DNA of 64,000 bases, taken from the NCBI GenBank assembly GCA_004022145.1, contig RCNU01000005.1, one strand, 5' to 3'. Each line of letters starts with the position of its first letter. The stretch's first letter is position 1. The notes below the pieces were generated by a model. It had not been told where the DNA came from. It saw only the letters and a list, made by a program, of their open reading frames with translations, and made no database searches. Below are positions 41,460 to 59,328 of the stretch, piece by piece. The position numbers were made by a program, and so were the translations under genes. Source of the DNA: Paecilomyces variotii (taxonomy: Eukaryota).

Positions 41460-42578
41460 TTACGAAGAGGCCGACTTGTACACACTGGGCATGTTCTGTG
41501 GCAATATAAACATCAGCATATAAATCCCTCTGCAACAAAAAGACGGTTTGACGTGGAGTTTATGACATACCGCTGCTCCCTTGGGCTCGATGAACAAGGC
41601 TTTAGCCTCGACTAGTACGACCGGTTCCTTACCCTCTTCCGGCAGCGTCTCAATGCGACCTTCTACCCAGGCCTTTCGACCTTCGACCTTGGTAGTCTCT
41701 GCTCTCAGCACGGCATACGCATTGGCCGGCGCCGGTCGTCGATAATCAATGTTCAGGTTTGCAGTAACACCCACGCCGTTAGGCAGAGCAGGGAAGCAGC
41801 ACCTGGCCAATCCTTCGTCGAGAATAGTGGCCAACATACCGCCGTGGACGATTCCAGGGTGACCGCATACATCAGAACCAAGATAGAAGATCGACACCAT
41901 GCTCTTTCCACCCTTCTCACTCCAGATGTACGGCGGCACGACTATCCTATCCGGTCCAGCCAGTGTGCCCGCGGTGAGATTCCGCCTGCGCATCTCCTCT
42001 GGGATCTTCAGGTGTGGGCGGGACTCGGTGAACAGAGGGTTGGCACGCAGCTCCTCTGATAAGGGATGATGTTTGATGAAATTGTCAACCTCGCGAGAGA
42101 ACTCATCTTCCGGTTGGAAGAGCGTGAGAGTCTCCTCATCGGTGGGAATGGGAGACGCCATTATGCGAGACACTGCTCGGATATTCGGATAGACGAAACC
42201 CGCTACAAATGCGACAATTGCAATGGATGTGAAACCGAGTGCACGGCGCAACCTGGAAGGAGACTTGGGAGGGTGAGACGCCGCAAAAGCTGCTGCTTCT
42301 AGGGTAATCGTCAGCATCAATTGGCATACATCGGTGGTGTCATTTCCGGCCAGAACGGCGGATGGCCCTGTCGATTACATAGATTCGGGGAACCCGGGGG
42401 AAGACATACCAGTCGCGTAGAGCCTGTTCAAAGATGCACATGAAGGACGCAAAAAGCCAGTGCCAACAGGGACGGCCGCGGGGTATCGTGCTTTATAAAG
42501 ATTCCCACGTCTGCTTAGGGCCGATAAGGATCTAGTTGCGGTGGGACTCAGCGCGCCCTTGGACCGGAAGCACAGCAT
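41460..42578 (-). CDS. Hot-dog-fold acyl-CoA thioesterase (PaaI/THEM4-like), probably mitochondrial, 3 exons
   Basis: Presequence-like N-terminus, one hydrophobic segment, CGHPGIVHGGMLATILDE, VTANLNIDYRRP, EAKALFIEPK. Confidence 0.88.
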
Positions 42579-43464: not shown

Positions 43465-46043
43465 TTAAGATTGGCGTGCCAGACTAATGACCTTTTTGGC
43501 AGCGTCCTCAAAGCTGTCGAAAGCGTGCAATGGGAGGCCGCTCTCCGCAATCTGTATGAAGGTGTTAGCCATGGTCTAGATTCATTTTATCCACTTGGGC
43601 CGTACCATCTTCTGTCCCGCTTCCTCGTTCGTACCCCTGAGTCTGACAACCACTGGGACTTTCATGTCCAGATCCCGGAACGCCAAGATGACACCTTCAG
43701 CGATCATGTCGCATCTGGTCAACCCACCGAAGATGTTAACGAAGATAGTCTTAACGCGTGGGTCGGAAGAGATAATGCGGAACGAGGACTTGACAGTCTC
43801 TGAAGTTGCCTTGCCACCAGTGTCAAGGAAGTTCGCGCAATGGCCACCATGCAGTGTAAGCGCATCAACTGTGTTCATAGCAAGTCCAGCACCATTGACT
43901 ATGCAGTGTTAGAACCATTTATGGCTACTTGGGCCCATAAGAGCAACTTACCCAGTGTCCCTATGCTTCCTTCGCCTTGAAGTCTTTAACAGCTCTATTA
44001 GTGCGGGTTCTGCGAAAAGAGTTCGGTTGCTGGTGCCATACTTAACGTAGACAATACCATCTTTCTCAGCTTCTACCTCTTCAGGGACCTCCTCGGCTTT
44101 ATTCCTTAGCTTATGAATCTCCTCTTGTCGGCCAGAGCTTCTGTACGCAGCATCGTCGAACCCGAAATGTGCGCCGTGGACTTCAAATTGTCCCGCTGGG
44201 GTCAAGGAGGCTCTGGTCTCGAGCAGGAACGCTTCCTTCTCCTTAAATATGCGCCAGAGCTTCTCAACTAGGTTCTGAAGCCCTCCTCTGGCATTCGCCG
44301 GAAGGTTAAGATGTGACGTGAGGGAAGGAATCAGGGAGCCATCTTTGGAGAAATCCGGATTCGCGTAACTGATTGGGAATTTGCGGGTAAAAGCTAATAA
44401 GAACTCTTCTTCGATCGTAGGAGACGCAATGATGCATGGGGACAGAGCACTCCGGTCAACAGAGATTGAAAGGATAAATTCCTCATCTGGGTCGACTGTG
44501 TTATAAATGGCGATACCTTCACCTCTGAGTATGTCGAATGCTTGATGTTGCTTGATATAGAGACGGCGTCGCTGGGGCTTATTCGAAAACACGTCTCTAT
44601 TCTTTACAACGGAAGGAGTCCGTCTCACAGTATGAAAACTCCGTTTCTGACCTTGGTTCCCAGATGTAGACTGGGAGAAATCAGTGTTTGGTGGCGTACA
44701 GTAGCACTATCATGGACTCACTTGGATGGTAGGACGTCGGGTAGTGTTGTTGAGCAGATCTCTCATACCCTCTCCAAACTTTTCGGGATGATTGACGAGT
44801 ACCGCGCCAGCATTTTGCAGTGCCTTATACTTCGCTCTGGCATCTGGCTCACCGGGAGCAGCCCAGGCTCCTGCATGACCCATAATTCTTCCTGGGGGTG
44901 CTTCCATACCACCAACTAGGGCCATGATTGGTCTTTTCTCAGTTAGCCGTGCGACCTAAAGATGGCATGAAGGTGTCATACTTAGGATTAGAAGTCCTCC
45001 TATGGTAGTCCTTGATCCACTCAGCAGCATCAATTTCTGCAGTGCCACCGATCTCACCCACAAGGATGATACCCTCCGTGTCGGGATCATTCTCAAAGAT
45101 CTGCAGAGCGTCCACGAAATTGGTTCCCGCCAGAACATCACCGCCCATGCTGATGCATAGAGATTGCCCCAAGCCAGCTCGGGTCAATGACGCGACAGTC
45201 TCGTAGCTCAGAGTGCCGGACTTCGCAACGACACCAATACTACCAGGCGAAAAGCAGGGTAGGGGCTGAAATCCAATGCGACATTTTCCAATTGCAGATA
45301 TTATCCCAGGGCAGTTTGCTCCCACAAGTCTGGTCTTGGATTGCGTCTGCAATATTGAATGGACCTGTGAGATGTTAGATGTTAGAGTGAAATAGAGATT
45401 GTCACTGCGATCCACTGACTCTGAGCATGTCATGAAGAGGAACGTGCTCCGCAACAGCAACTACGAGGGGTATTTCAGCTTCGATGGCTTCCTCAATCGC
45501 CTTGGCTGTCTGGTTTCCTGGGACGTAGATGGCAGATGCATCAGGTTTCGCCCTATCCACTGCCTATGTACTACAATGAGCATACTGCTGCAATTTGCAC
45601 ATGTAGAGGCGTTCTCCGTAATACGCACCGTTCTCACAGAGGGAAAGACAGGAAGCCCCAAATGCTCGCCTTCCACACCAGGCTTCACGCCTCCAACAAT
45701 CCTCGTACCCCATGCTAGAGATTCCTTCGCATTGGCAGTGGCCTGGAACTAGCGTAAGCACTGATTCCAATGATAGATTACTCCCATTAATTTACCTGTC
45801 GACCTGCTAAAGTATCAGCAACTATCCGGTATTTCCCAACCCTATATAGTATGTATGTTGTTTGAACCTACCAGTAAACCCTTGATAAAGGACCTTTGTA
45901 TGGGCTCCAATCTTGAGATTTGGAAGCGTATCCGCATATCCCCATGTCCTCGTTGACGTTGAGAACTTGGACCTTAACATATGTGAGGCATGGGGTAAGA
46001 CGCGAGCCCGTGAAAGCCGCACGGGCGATGAAGTCACGGGCAT
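43465..46043 (-). CDS. Succinyl-CoA-ligase-like single-chain alpha+beta fusion protein, about 10 exons
   Basis: Alpha: [41 protein letters not shown]. Phase-0 intron 44671-44721 joins it to beta: [67 protein letters not shown]. Confidence 0.88.
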
Positions 46044-48290: not shown

Positions 48291-48976
48291 ATGTCCATTA
48301 TGGCTGATCGAACGCCCGATACATCAAAAGGTGAGTAGCTTGGATCAATGGCAATGTATATCGAAGAAGTGTTGCGAGAAACATCAACTGACTAGGCTCG
48401 TGATTCGATACAGGCACCAAGGAGTTGGAGTCCCAGTTGGAATCGTGTCTGCAAGATCTCAGCCTCACCAACAAGAGACCGGATAAAGACATACCACGAC
48501 CTATAACCAAGAAAGGTCCAACGAAACCGAAGAAGGACGCAATCGCAGATTCCTGGGAAGACGAGATCGATTCGTCTGGTTCTGAGACGGAGAAAGAAAA
48601 GGAAGAGACATCAACACCACTCACGCCGTCAGCTGAAGGACCGCTAGCTCCCCCGCCCACACCTATCTCACCACAGACAAGTGCTACCTGGACAGCTACA
48701 GGCAATGCTCCATACGCAGATGCTGTCCCGCCCGCCGTGCCCAACAGTCGAGCGCCTGGCCCTCCTCGCGTGAGGCCGGCGAAGCAGACAGCTGTGGCTG
48801 CTAGGCTCATAGCTGGAGGACTAGGGATCCGAGCACCGAAGAGGACAGAAGAGCAGCGAGCATACGACCGAGCTGTCAGAGAGCAAGAGCTCAAGAGACG
48901 AAACCGCGAAAAGGAAGAAGCAGCGAGAGCCAAGGAAGAGGAAGAACGGGCCAAGTCTGCAGTCTGGGATGCTTAA
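48291..48976 (+). CDS. Small conserved-type hypothetical protein with IADSWED motif and C-terminal RPxKQTAVAARLIAGGLG plus coiled coil; intron 48331-48413
   Basis: ATG at 48291 or 48300, donor G|GTGAGT, branch ACTGAC, acceptor TACAG| joins in frame to ORF 48425-48976. Confidence 0.8.
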
Positions 48977-55627: not shown

Positions 55628-56611
55628 CTACTCATACTCTGCCATGAGCCTATTCCCCTGAACCTTTGCCGGGAAGGCCTCTTCGCCCAAAGTGGTCGTA
55701 TGCGCCCATGGCTTCAGGCTATTCTCCCGATGGATGACAGCAGTGAAGCAATCGCTCCACTTCAGACGCGGGTAGTGTTTGGTTACATCTTCGATTGTTG
55801 CTTTGTGGACTAGTTGAGAGTGCGTGCCTGTGTTATCTATTGATTTCTATTAGTAGTTGATTCATGTGGTGGAGTTTTGAGCATGGTCATAGCCACATAA
55901 TATCCATACATGAGCTATGTCTATGGTTCTAAGTAACCTACGATAGGAACCATGACAAGACAGGGAGAGGGGGGCCATGGGGGAAAAGGGAGTCAAAGAA
56001 AGGAGAAAGAAAGTACCAAAGATCGTGGCCAGCTGCAATAATTGCCCTAACGCTGTAATCTTCCCCTCCTGGCACAGATCCTGATGTCGAATAATAGCTT
56101 CCGTAACACTCTCAGCCTGCTCACGCGGAGCTGCCATGGGCGACGCAACCGCGATTGCTCCAGTTGACTGTAGTAAATTGAGAGCCAAGATACCACCGTA
56201 GAACTCGAAGCTGATATGGGTCTTATGCAGATTCTCTTCCGTCGTACCGATGTCATGCAGCAGACAGCTGAGGAAGTATGTCTCGTCCGTAAATGCCCAG
56301 GTCGGGAAGCGGTAACGCTTCATGGCGATTCCGTACAGGTAGACACGCAGTGAGTGGTTGTATGTCGGTTCTGGGAGATGCGATTTCGCATAGTCGTGGA
56401 TGCGTTGAGCGAGGGGCGTATTGGGAATAGGGATGTCTGAGACGGATATAGGTGCTGGAGGTGAGGATGGAGCCGGGTAGGGCGTTGAGGAATTGAGCAG
56501 CGTTTCCGCGGAGGAAGGAACAGCTGTGAATCCATAGGTCTCAACGGGGTCGATGGCCGTATTCTTTTTCTTTGTGGGTTGATCCTTGTTGTGAGGGAGA
56601 ACTGAGGACAT
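55628..56611 (-). CDS. Cyanamide hydratase / HD-domain urea hydro-lyase (Ddi2/Ddi3-like), 2 exons
   Basis: YGFTAVP, TYNHSLRVY, CLLHDIGTT (HD), SFEFYGG, EAIIRHQD, LQLATIF|DNTG, YPRLKWSDCF, KPWAHTT; intron ~55837-56015. Confidence 0.92.
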
Positions 56612-59328
56612 GTTGATTTGATAAAAGCGTGACTTTGTAATTATTTATATAGTTAATACCGAACTATACTGTGGAGTCGTAGAAAACCTGTCGAAGGACT
56701 CGATGGCTTTTTTATATAGATGAATAAGTAGAATTATATGATCTCTACAGATTGATTTATAAGGACTGATGTCATTTATGGTGCTGGAGAGGTTATTCAT
56801 TACATTTTGCCATGAAGACCGAGTGGAAGACTTTCGTGGTTGACAACCTCAGGGCGTGACGACGGCTCCGCATGGCTTCCGCAGAATCAATCTATGACGA
56901 GTGAATTACTGTGCATGTTCCCTCTTTGTATGGAATCACAAGCACATTGACAATTGCAGTATTGGTGGAAAATCAAGAGCATCCCCTATCCGGTTCTTAC
57001 ACTTGGGCATCATATGGAATTGGACTCGTTGGGTGTGACTGTCAGTCGTCGGAAAGGAATACAGAATGCGCGAACAAGGCTGGGATTATCAACATCTGTG
57101 ATATGACCGCATAAGAGACTGGTTATATGATCAGCAGAACAGAAAACCGCTGTTGATGTGATCTAAATAATCGATTCCTCTGCAAATGAGTTTTCATCTT
57201 TTTTTGCATAGTCTGGTACAGTGGCATATCTCAAGCAGCCAAGCTAGGGGCGATATCCTACAGTCTACATCCAAAAGCCGTCAAACATCAAAGTGGCTCA
57301 GTATGACAGACCCAAGCGCGATAACAAAATATTCACTGGGGTTGAATCTTTTTCGTCCGCGCTAGTGGTCTGATGCGCCTACACGTCTAACGCATCGGTG
57401 CAAGGGATACCCCGGAAATGCAAACAGGAATATTAAGTTATGTAGATTCGGCTGACAGCTTGTGAGACAGATCATATTAGTCTTATTTATTGTAGGGGCA
57501 CATGGGAGGCAACATGTTGTCAAGACTGCTGCCATTCAGTTCTGGTCATTATTATTTGCATTCCAGGGAGGACACTGTCTCCTAGGATACTATTAGGAAA
57601 GTATTAGGCGAATAAGCGCCATGATTGCACAGCATTCTCTTGACTGGAGTTGAACAATCCTGGTAATGAGGGCCCTAGCACAAGGAGCCTTGGTCCCGCG
57701 ATTTACCTATGTGGTTTTGAACCCGTCACAACGTCCTCTTTGACATACGGAGCTCTCTTTTCCTGACTATTAGCTGTGGGACCGTATAGCAACAAGGATA
57801 ACTATATGGATGTGGACAAGAGAAAGAACCACTTTGGATGATTCTTACTGGGGGTCTGTTCTGTCGTTGGTGTCCTCGAATCGGCGCTGACGAGTCGATC
57901 TCCAAAAGATGTGTCCTCGAACACTGAAGAACCATCACTCTTGAACAGCGCGTTTGGACCTTCCTGAAGCAGTCGAAACAGCCAGTCGGGCTTATCTTTT
58001 ATCTGATAAGTTAGCAGTAGCAGCAGTTCCATAAGCGACCAGAAACGCCGACTGACAAAGGTCGTCTCCCATGGGGCCCCTCTAGACCGATCGACCTGTG
58101 CCAAGAACGGCTTTGATGGACCCTTTTTGTATCTCGAATTGACGTAGCAAGCCCGGCGGATCTTGGGTGGAGCTCGTTAAGCTCAAGTTGACTAGAATAT
58201 GCCGCCCCTAAAGGCCGGCCGAAAGCGTACCTGCGCGGGTAGACTACCAAGGCATAACTAAGTGGCCGTTCTGTAGCCGGTAAGCTCCTTCTGTCGCGTG
58301 GTTGATTATTGCCAGGATGCAGTCGTCTGGGTTACTCTGTCGATAACATTATCGGTTCTGCGATGGCATGTCCGTCACAACATGACATCTGGCATTGCCG
58401 CCCTGAAAATGCCTCATCCTGTTTGGGTGGAAAGGAAGACTGGGTTCGTGGTTCATGTTGGCCGACGCTCTGAATGCGAGTCCAATGAAGGACAAGTGAG
58501 TGAGGCTGTGCAAACGCTAAAGCAACCCCCAACCCCATCTCCCGTCTGGGCAAAGAAATTTTCTTGTCTGGATCCTGCTTTGCCAGTAGTGGCGAGCTCT
58601 TGCGGTCAGGAGCCATGATGCTGATGGTACGTTAGCTTTGGAATCAGGCTTCTTGTGGGGGAGTTGGCTGATGGGAGAAGAGAGTAGACGTATCTATATC
58701 CCGTCAATCGTGAAGGCCTATCTCAAGTATCAATCTGAATCAGCGAGGCCTGTCATCGGCGAGTTGTACCTAACTGTACCATAAGCCCTGGTAATTAATA
58801 TCGATGATGACAGGGCAATAATAATATATGCTCTGGAACGGCTGCTCAAGGAGCAATGGCAGCCCTGAGTGGCTGCTGTTGGCATTCGGGTGCAAATAGT
58901 CTTCCCGCATGCAACTGTCTAGTGGAGAACTAGTGTAACAAGGGGAGAGCAACAGTCCGGAGGCGTCGATTGATGCCCATGGATCTGCCCATTACTCTCT
59001 GTTGCAAAGACGGGGGATAGCTCCGTCTGGTCAAACGTTTGGGTCCGGAGGTTGGAAGGTTTCCCGCCCGTTGTTATTACTGTTAATATTGTAAGAAAAG
59101 CCTGGGCTCTGATCATCACGCTCCTGAGCCCCGACGAAAAGCTCGCCCAGTGTGTGCTTAACTCTACTCCAAACACGGTGCTCGTTGCACACTGTTGATG
59201 GCAGTCTTCGCACTTTCATTGGACATATCCCCGACCATCGTGGTTCGTCGACAAGACGATCGTTGTGTTGTCTTTGCTGGCGATCCAACCTGATCAGTTC
59301 GACGGGGAATCCTGGACAGGCACGACTG

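Follow-up and report, generated by a model that had tools for sequence, protein, structure and literature searches.

A fused succinyl-CoA synthetase-like protein of Paecilomyces variotii that has lost its nucleotide site and is probably processed into two chains

The window analysed here, a stretch of 64,000 nucleotides from contig RCNU01000005.1 of the Paecilomyces variotii assembly GCA_004022145.1, carries on its minus strand (46043..43465) a gene in which an alpha-like and a beta-like half of succinyl-CoA synthetase (SCS) are joined in one reading frame. Judged from its sequence, the product retains an intact CoA and phospho-His site (site I in the following) and has lost its nucleotide site (site II), and the linker between its halves resembles a mitochondrial presequence, a point missed in the first-pass annotation of this DNA. 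The mature enzyme is probably a heterodimer of two chains. The best overall explanation, put forward tentatively and at somewhat less than even chances, is an MPP-processed dimer (MPP, mitochondrial processing peptidase) that would transfer CoA from succinyl-CoA to another dicarboxylate in a phosphate-dependent reaction running over phospho-His.

The fusion gene is real, widespread and apparently unstudied. No description of it was found in a literature search that covered few subscription papers and only such supplements as were visible, nor was any found for the tags AN1193, Afu1g10830, AFUA_1G10830 and NCU09810, the last being an unconfirmed tag. The searchable supplement text of PMC6320622 and PMC12279275 contained no data on the gene; other tables could hold expression data.

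Gene structure and transcript

The gene consists of ten exons (46043-45872, 45803-45796, 45742-45629, 45563-45420, 45364-44982, 44932-44722, 44670-44042, 43983-43952, 43898-43606 and 43551-43465) separated by nine GT..AG introns, and encodes 690 amino acids followed by a single terminal stop. This structure is based on the gene model, on RNA contigs and on the translation, which is identical to the P. variotii database protein P0570 and differs at seven residues from P. variotii protein P0001.

As had been proposed from the sequence alone, the two halves are joined by a phase-0 intron of 51 nucleotides (44671..44721, GTGAGT..CTGAT..CAG). It is located inside the linker and contains in-frame stops. 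In contigs of the runs X3, X4 and X9, which stem from three studies and of which X3 and X4 are RNA by guess only, exactly these 51 bases are skipped together with six further predicted introns, and in each of the three runs one contig spans both alpha and beta. In a fourth run (X8) the contigs show no spliced joints and could stem from DNA, and this run was left out of the support. Separate alpha and beta genes are ruled out by the RNA contigs. The beta part cannot supply a start of its own before LAMNT, as the first-pass annotation had also noted: residues 330-572 are free of Met. Were the linker intron retained, the frame would end just past the alpha half and yield an alpha-only protein; no such form is present in the three spliced runs. 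An exon of only 8 nucleotides (45796-45803) lies within the CoA-binding loop region, and its two flanking introns appear as one joint in the X3 and X4 contigs.

Fold and active sites

For structure comparison an alignment-based AlphaFold2 model was used (predicted local distance difference test, pLDDT, 89.6; predicted template modelling score, pTM, 0.87), while a single-sequence prediction (pLDDT 35.7) was discarded. The model is SCS-like, with disorder at residues 1-26 and 349-378. The first 35 or so residues (45939..46043) contain six Arg/Lys and neither Asp nor Glu, and from this composition and the low pLDDT of residues 1-26 they are predicted to form an N-terminal mitochondrial presequence. 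The CoA-binding and both CoA-ligase subdomains are present with the SCS fold according to sequence, structure and Pfam.

The alpha-like half (residues 36-334, 44752..45938) matches solved SCS alpha chains with E-values of about 1e-87 and superposes on human SUCLG1 with a root-mean-square deviation (rmsd) of 1.4 Å at 48% sequence identity. It comprises the CoA-binding domain with the QGFTG loop (residues 54-58), the power helix KSGTLSYE, Glu250, which corresponds to E208 alpha, and the GRIMGHAGA loop with His293, the counterpart of H246 alpha; the two loops had already been recognised as retained in the first-pass annotation. The putative phospho-His loop, its partner Glu and both power helices are kept (H293, E250, [15 protein letters not shown]).

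The beta-like half matches solved beta chains only from about residue 100 onwards. It is composed of a truncated ATP-grasp (44042..44562) and the beta CoA-ligase domain (43468..43983), the latter with the motifs NGAGLAM (43896-43876), DTGGKA (43824-43807) and GGLTRC (43728-43711). In an alignment to E. coli SucC (annotated K-12 record), L17 lies opposite I397 and E107 opposite E408, and the 79 residues in between are gone, near position 44512 and within one exon; the earlier estimate of roughly 80 missing residues is borne out, and a hidden exon carrying them is ruled out because the deletion falls within one exon. The missing residues are the ATP-grasp lid, including K46 and GGRGK. This lid matters for binding and phosphate transfer (PMC11494057, in part). 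Of the remaining site II residues, SucC E197 is retained as E495, N199 is replaced by R497 so that EINP reads ETRA (44220-44209), and D213 is replaced by G510 (44175-44173), both losses having been spotted in the first-pass annotation. The same holds for the changes from DVGGGA to DTGGKA and from GGIVRC to GGLTRC, two loops which we take to be acid-pocket loops.

The complete ATP-grasp required of a succinate-CoA ligase (lid, K46, GGRGK, N199 and D213) is therefore absent, and DTGGKA and GGLT stand in place of the canonical acid-pocket loops. P0001 contains no match to PF08442, and with the NCBIfam models of either subunit its scores fall short of the cut-off (alpha: 306.9 against 336 and 305.9 against 353.2; beta: 236 against 370 and 224.6 against 375.55). 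By its fold the protein belongs to the superfamily of NDP-forming acyl-CoA synthetases (SCS/ACD), and its sequence places it outside the ADP/GDP-forming succinate-CoA ligases.

Throughout the family the two sites behave differently. Where aligned, site I is nearly invariant, with E137 and N163 in 116/116 sequences each, S195 and G196 in 119/119, E250 in 124/124, K594 in 141/141, and T591 and T625 in 140/141 each. At site II, the N199 position is occupied by Arg (71), Lys (21), Gln (18), His (6) or Thr (6), and the D213 position by Gly (91), Ser (11), Asp (10), Glu (8) or Ala (7). That Arg497 takes the place of Mg throughout the family is ruled out, since its column is variable. The pocket of the beta-like half (beta′) is the best-conserved region, with a mean column conservation of 0.85 compared with 0.74 for alpha.

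Distribution, selection and origin

A search with the N-terminal beta exon retrieved 333 longer proteins among 1521 candidates, and most of the 120 matches listed are alpha-beta proteins of 630-750 amino acids from Eurotiomycetes. Orthologues, which carry the database name "succinyl-CoA synthetase subunit alpha", are found in A. nidulans (AN1193, the annotated orthologue of AFUA_1G10830), A. niger and A. flavus, and distant members in Xylariales, Elsinoe, Letrouitia and Mycena. GGRGK occurs in none of 141 proteins with alpha-beta order. From 244 confirmed metagenome loci the best 80 were chosen with family-specific patterns; the lid is matched in none of the 80, the alpha half lies directly upstream on the same strand in 67, and the remaining 13 start at most 175 bases from a contig edge. 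The claim that the nucleotide site is dead is upheld by these counts.

Some relatives depart from this organisation. P0136, P0141, P0143 and P0157 have the beta-then-alpha order, and P0136, P0141 and P0157 likewise lack the lid. Eight unnamed SCS-like proteins of about 700 amino acids (P0179, P0181, P0190, P0194, P0200, P0203, P0211 and P0222), also in beta-then-alpha order, have GGRGK intact and are probably prokaryotic fusions. P0240 from Saitoella is a stand-alone beta that has a lid but carries NQRQT in place of GGRGK and Ser in place of D213; its position in the tree is beside the fused forms, and it may be an intermediate state.

The same genome contains a canonical alpha gene on contig C5, a canonical beta gene with intact K46, GGRGK, EINP and D213 on contig C78, and ATP-citrate lyase-like genes on C6. 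Because intact canonical alpha and beta genes exist on other contigs, the fusion gene does not encode the enzyme of the tricarboxylic acid cycle, as the first-pass annotation had supposed.

Judged by the ratio of nonsynonymous to synonymous substitution rates (dN/dS), purifying selection acts on the beta half. For the five closest pairs with dN < 0.1 the N-terminal part of beta gives 0.03-0.26, and for the eight closest pairs the C-terminal part gives 0-0.22. Distant pairs (dN 0.3-0.8) approach 1 in the N-terminal part, with a maximum of 1.12, which is probably due to saturation, codon bias and underestimated dS. A strict filter left one pair; a looser one, which includes saturated pairs, left 12/1275, 74/2278 and 200/2278 pairs with medians of 0.06, 0.42 and 0.13. 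Separate transcripts, an intact GGRGK in the mRNA and a lack of purifying selection on beta, which the first-pass annotation had named as evidence that would speak against it, were looked for and none of them was found.

Two intron positions are common to the fusion gene and the canonical fungal beta gene. In a rough tree of beta sequences (FastTree local supports, one canonical eukaryotic beta, 4 of 47 planned database rows dropped for want of the anchor motif), beta′ groups with the unfused second betas described below (beta2) at a support of 0.83. Together the shared introns and the tree indicate duplication of a fungal nuclear gene, and rule out transfer from bacteria.

The linker region

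The linker between the halves (residues 335-380, 44563..44751) is disordered in the model and contains 12 Arg/Lys and one Asp/Glu over residues 335-381. Most of it is hypervariable, and just two islands are conserved: Q-[KR]-R-x-hydrophobic-H-T and Q-x-R-x-L. The former is represented here by QKRSFHT (residues 352-358, 44629..44649; candidate MPP site 1), where Arg, His and Thr occupy 136, 134 and 129 of 142 alignment rows, and the latter by QRRRLY (residues 377-382, 44557..44574; candidate MPP site 2), with Arg in 137 of the 142 rows. Opposite site 2 in the alignment, the genome's own canonical beta precursor has QRRNLS (QRRNLSIHEY) at its start.

In composition the linkers of the 141 proteins (Arg 16.8%, Asp plus Glu 1.9%, Ser plus Thr 23.6%) resemble 82 N-terminal presequences (16.3, 0.8 and 24.9%), while the folded parts contain 4-5% Arg and 10-15% Asp plus Glu. 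The motif R-x-hydrophobic-[HST]-[TSA] is found in 124 of the 141 linkers, compared with a mean of 8.9 and a maximum of 17 in 200 shuffles, and is absent from 35,360 alpha residues. At less than 60% identity it persists in 20/31 linkers, with the site-1 Arg in 29/31 and the site-2 Arg in 26/31. Two relatives in beta-alpha order have Arg-rich linkers containing RTFST and RSFSS.

MPP is described to cut R-2 sites within internal presequence-like stretches, as in Arg5,6 and Atp25, and in Atp25 the linker is removed by two cuts (PMC8734313 and PMC5063612, in part); the string "succin" is absent from the main text of either paper. The presequence-like stretch with a conserved R-2 motif at the junction is what a composite precursor would be expected to contain, and on account of the conserved Arg islands, the presequence composition and these precedents the chain is read as one. 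The first-pass description of a single-chain enzyme is hence valid for the precursor, which arises from one mRNA, and probably not for the mature protein, given the presequence-like linker with two MPP-type sites.

Unfused paralogues and genomic neighbourhood

Many fungi, Sordariomycetes and others, possess second stand-alone beta (beta2) and alpha (alpha2) genes only a few locus tags apart (pairs P0256/P0455, P0300/P0474 and P0364/P0490; also P0247, P0394 and P0305). The pair is absent from the P. variotii genome examined. Among 78 near-full-length second betas the residues of the nucleotide site are kept in 33 and decayed in 45, the latter in several separate clades. Thr323, as in the fusion, is present in 39 of the 45 decayed compared with 5 of the 33 intact ones. 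In two merged gene models (P0394, P0247) a beta2-type beta is joined to a hydratase-like gene; P0394 matches the itaconyl-CoA hydratase 8khg with an E-value of 8.5e-22, and the hydratase part of P0247 was judged by eye. A short-chain dehydrogenase/reductase (SDR) gene likewise lies beside such betas in merged models. The unfused pair, the hydratase-like gene and the SDR gene look, from sequence, like an undescribed catabolic cluster.

Within the window the fusion gene is surrounded by housekeeping genes, and the recurrent neighbours in the 80 loci are an unnamed open reading frame (ORF) in 33, SUMO in 27 and Nup84 in 22. A 4HBT thioesterase gene (41460-42374) is situated directly downstream on the same strand, and this neighbour recurs in loci L020-L024 and in the merged model P0116 from Myotisia. 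On the plus strand, between the fusion gene and a SUMO-like gene, lies a conserved ORF (48404-48976) with a KQTAVA motif and no Pfam match, which is also merged in P0007. Further away, a minus-strand gene (55862-56644) has an HD domain with a weak Pfam match, presumably of the cyanamide hydratase type. In Penicillium the merged models P0009, P0019, P0028 and P0029 include a carnitine acyltransferase gene (PF00755) directly upstream.

Proposed reaction and alternatives

SCS catalysis comprises three steps, namely formation of an acyl-phosphate, phosphorylation of the His with release of the acid, and phosphorylation of a nucleoside diphosphate (NDP) (PMC2440562 and PMC10342173, both in part). 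Steps one and two require site I alone, which is conserved in the fusion protein, and step three depends on what the protein has lost. It is likely that the precursor would be imported into the matrix, where MPP would remove the N-terminal presequence and cut at both Arg motifs of the linker, giving by analogy with Arg5,6 and Atp25 an alpha′/beta′ heterodimer of 1:1 stoichiometry. With about even probability this dimer would perform only the first two, reversible SCS steps at the intact site between alpha and beta, so that acyl-CoA and inorganic phosphate would yield a bound acyl-phosphate and then phospho-His293, free acid and CoA. As no NDP could accept the phosphate, a second acid would discharge phospho-His, and the net reaction would be A-CoA + B = A + B-CoA with phosphate acting catalytically. 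The protein would then be a CoA transferase that uses the SCS fold without any nucleotide. A CoA transferase or phosphorolase activity, as suggested in the first-pass annotation, is plausible. The explanation by CoA transfer is preferred, being in keeping with a pocket that is changed yet invariant and with a nucleotide site that has decayed repeatedly. As to the substrates, there is a faint indication that CoA might pass from succinyl-CoA as donor to a substituted C4-C5 dicarboxylate of the methylsuccinate, mesaconate or citramalate type. The guess at a branched dicarboxylate draws on PMC12290011 (in part), where SCS is noted to be capable of activating itaconate, with related clusters serving methylsuccinate. 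Slightly less probable than the overall explanation is the wider proposal of a new mechanistic class of CoA transferases in filamentous fungi, SCS-derived, phosphate-dependent and nucleotide-free, made as an MPP-cut polyprotein, the nucleotide-free state having been reached several times independently in a second SCS lineage tied to branched-dicarboxylate catabolism.

Several observations weigh against the preferred explanation. His293, NGAGLA and the NxFGG loop were themselves selection criteria, so that their conservation is partly built in, and the linker motif was defined after the alignment had been seen, in a set of 141 proteins that are mostly Eurotiales. The motif is missing from 17 of these linkers and likewise from P0157 of Trichosporon, a relative in beta-alpha order whose linker is acidic. 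Both the association with Thr323 and the link to a hydratase come from sister paralogues and are not independent in phylogenetic terms, and in the alpha tree the grouping of alpha′ with alpha2 has a support of 0.17 only. No clue to the substrate was found in the neighbourhood of the 80 loci, nor did the literature search return any case of nucleotide-free CoA transfer by an SCS fold. Itaconate itself is disfavoured, as A. niger possesses the fusion gene yet needs IctA: deletion of ictA halts itaconate conversion, and the authors conclude that there is no other itaconyl-CoA maker (PMC6320622, in part). Since fungi have IctA and Ach1 (PMC6320622, PMC12279275), the need for another CoA transferase is questionable. 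Cleavage, localisation and activity are, moreover, all deduced from sequence.

The same data were weighed under other readings. One of them bears on processing alone and would suit any chemistry: the chain would stay in one piece, and the linker would be a relic presequence that aids import. A disordered stretch of 46 residues agrees with the confident single-chain model, stretches resembling an internal mitochondrial targeting sequence can help import without cleavage (PMC5881500, in part), and the linkers devoid of the motif point the same way; two sharply conserved Arg motifs in a hypervariable linker are hard to explain without a protease, however, and we regard an uncleaved chain as unlikely. 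Unlikely, too, is a processed heterodimer in which the phosphate leaves by another exit, through release of acyl-phosphate by what would be an acyl-CoA phosphorolase or phosphotransacylase, through hydrolysis of phospho-His by a net thioesterase liberating CoA, or through handover to a partner such as mitochondrial NDP kinase. It requires intact site I alone and could draw on the adjoining thioesterase gene; P0001 matches the FdrA model, albeit weakly and below cut-off (E 6.7e-8). FdrA/AllF, which shares the PF00549 annotation, takes part in a phosphorolysis without nucleotide (PMC11326118, in part), and a link between SCS and NDP kinase is discussed in PMC10342173. Such machinery would be superfluous for a simple hydrolase, though, and the thioesterase neighbour is confined to a few near relatives including P0116. 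SCS, besides, does not normally release free acyl-phosphate. In A. flavus, which has the fusion gene, deletion of the canonical beta still leads to accumulation of succinyl-CoA (PMC12279275, in part); this counts against the alternative exit and implies that the fusion gene is no replacement for canonical beta.

It is improbable that the protein is a non-catalytic sensor of acyl-CoA or phosphate, or a CoA-ester-binding scaffold, controlling a different enzyme of the matrix through the state of its phospho-His. The single-copy gene in a housekeeping synteny block, away from any metabolic cluster, would suit such a role, and in bacterial Pat acetyltransferases acyl-CoA is sensed by catalytically altered ACD-like domains. 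The His is commonly missing from sensors, though, while every catalytic residue of site I is retained here, and the recurrent pocket change in sister paralogues rather suits a substrate. At a slightly lower probability still, the nucleotide site might be provided in trans, with alpha′ pairing with canonical beta, or with its His loop charged by the canonical enzyme in a mixed oligomer, so that an NDP-forming ligase for another acid would result. Cleavage would liberate alpha′, an intact canonical beta exists in the same genome, and site II is kept in those 33 of the 78 unfused paralogous betas; but the acid pocket lies mostly in the best-conserved beta′, which argues for alpha′ working with beta′, and in PMC10342173 (in part) the SCS of eukaryotes figures as a simple heterodimer. 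An annotation artefact, a pseudogene or ordinary SCS has been largely refuted and retains a minimal probability: the database name and those distant pairs with dN/dS near 1 are countered by the spliced contigs, by conservation from Eurotiomycetes to Mycena, by the low ratios of close pairs and by scores below the cut-offs of both subunits.

Moulds used as models or in industry share the gene (A. nidulans AN1193, A. niger, A. oryzae), and metabolic models may be misled by its annotation as an ordinary SCS alpha subunit. If the enzyme is nucleotide-free, it would add a type of reaction to a textbook fold and would make CoA transfer possible by a new route, with a bearing on organic-acid turnover in production strains. 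If the precursor is cleaved, a metabolic heterodimer would join the short list of MPP-cut composite precursors.

Comparison with known systems

Compared with mitochondrial and bacterial SCS (human SUCLG1-SUCLA2, 6G4Q; pig, 2FP4; E. coli SucCD, 1JKJ/2SCU), the fusion protein shows the same fold of subdomains 1, 2, 4 and 5 (rmsd 1.4 Å for alpha and 1.9-2.5 Å for beta), CoA site, power helices and phospho-His with its Glu. In contrast to SCS it is made as one precursor instead of from two genes, is devoid of the lid subdomain, K46, GGRGK, N199 and D213, and carries the substitutions V289T, G292K, I322L and V323T in the beta pocket as well as TEG to AEH and GIMP to GFQP in alpha.

The unfused alpha2/beta2 proteins of Fusarium, Colletotrichum, Cordyceps, Rhizodiscina and others, uncharacterised in the literature searched, share with the fusion the alpha signatures ATxNA and AEHxPx[10 protein letters not shown] and the beta pocket type D[AT]GG[QK]A. 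They differ in being encoded by separate genes close by locus tag (CDD83_270/272, FANTH_10027/10035, RJ55_04851/04859) and in that beta2 has the lid, with site II intact in the fraction given above.

With the MPP-cut precursors (yeast Arg5,6 and Atp25, N. crassa arg-6, S. pombe Rsm22-Cox11) the fusion has in common the tandem arrangement, the presequence-like joint and the R-2 motifs. Like Atp25 it contains two internal sites, and like Arg5,6 its parts would be partners of one complex; unlike in these precursors, its cleavage is a prediction.

E. coli FdrA/AllF of the oxamic transcarbamylase AllFGH resembles the fusion in its CoA-ligase annotation and in a phosphorolysis written without nucleotide (oxalurate + Pi = oxamate + carbamoyl phosphate, Pi being inorganic phosphate; PMC11326118, in part). 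It is very distant, though, consists of three subunits and performs carbamoyl chemistry. Finally, Ict/IctA and Ach1/CoaT resemble the fusion in the proposed net nucleotide-free exchange between acyl-CoA and acid. P0001 matches none of the CoA transferase families in Pfam or NCBIfam, only families of the SCS type. Known CoA transferases use Glu/Asp-CoA or anhydride intermediates, not the phospho-His that is proposed for the fusion protein.

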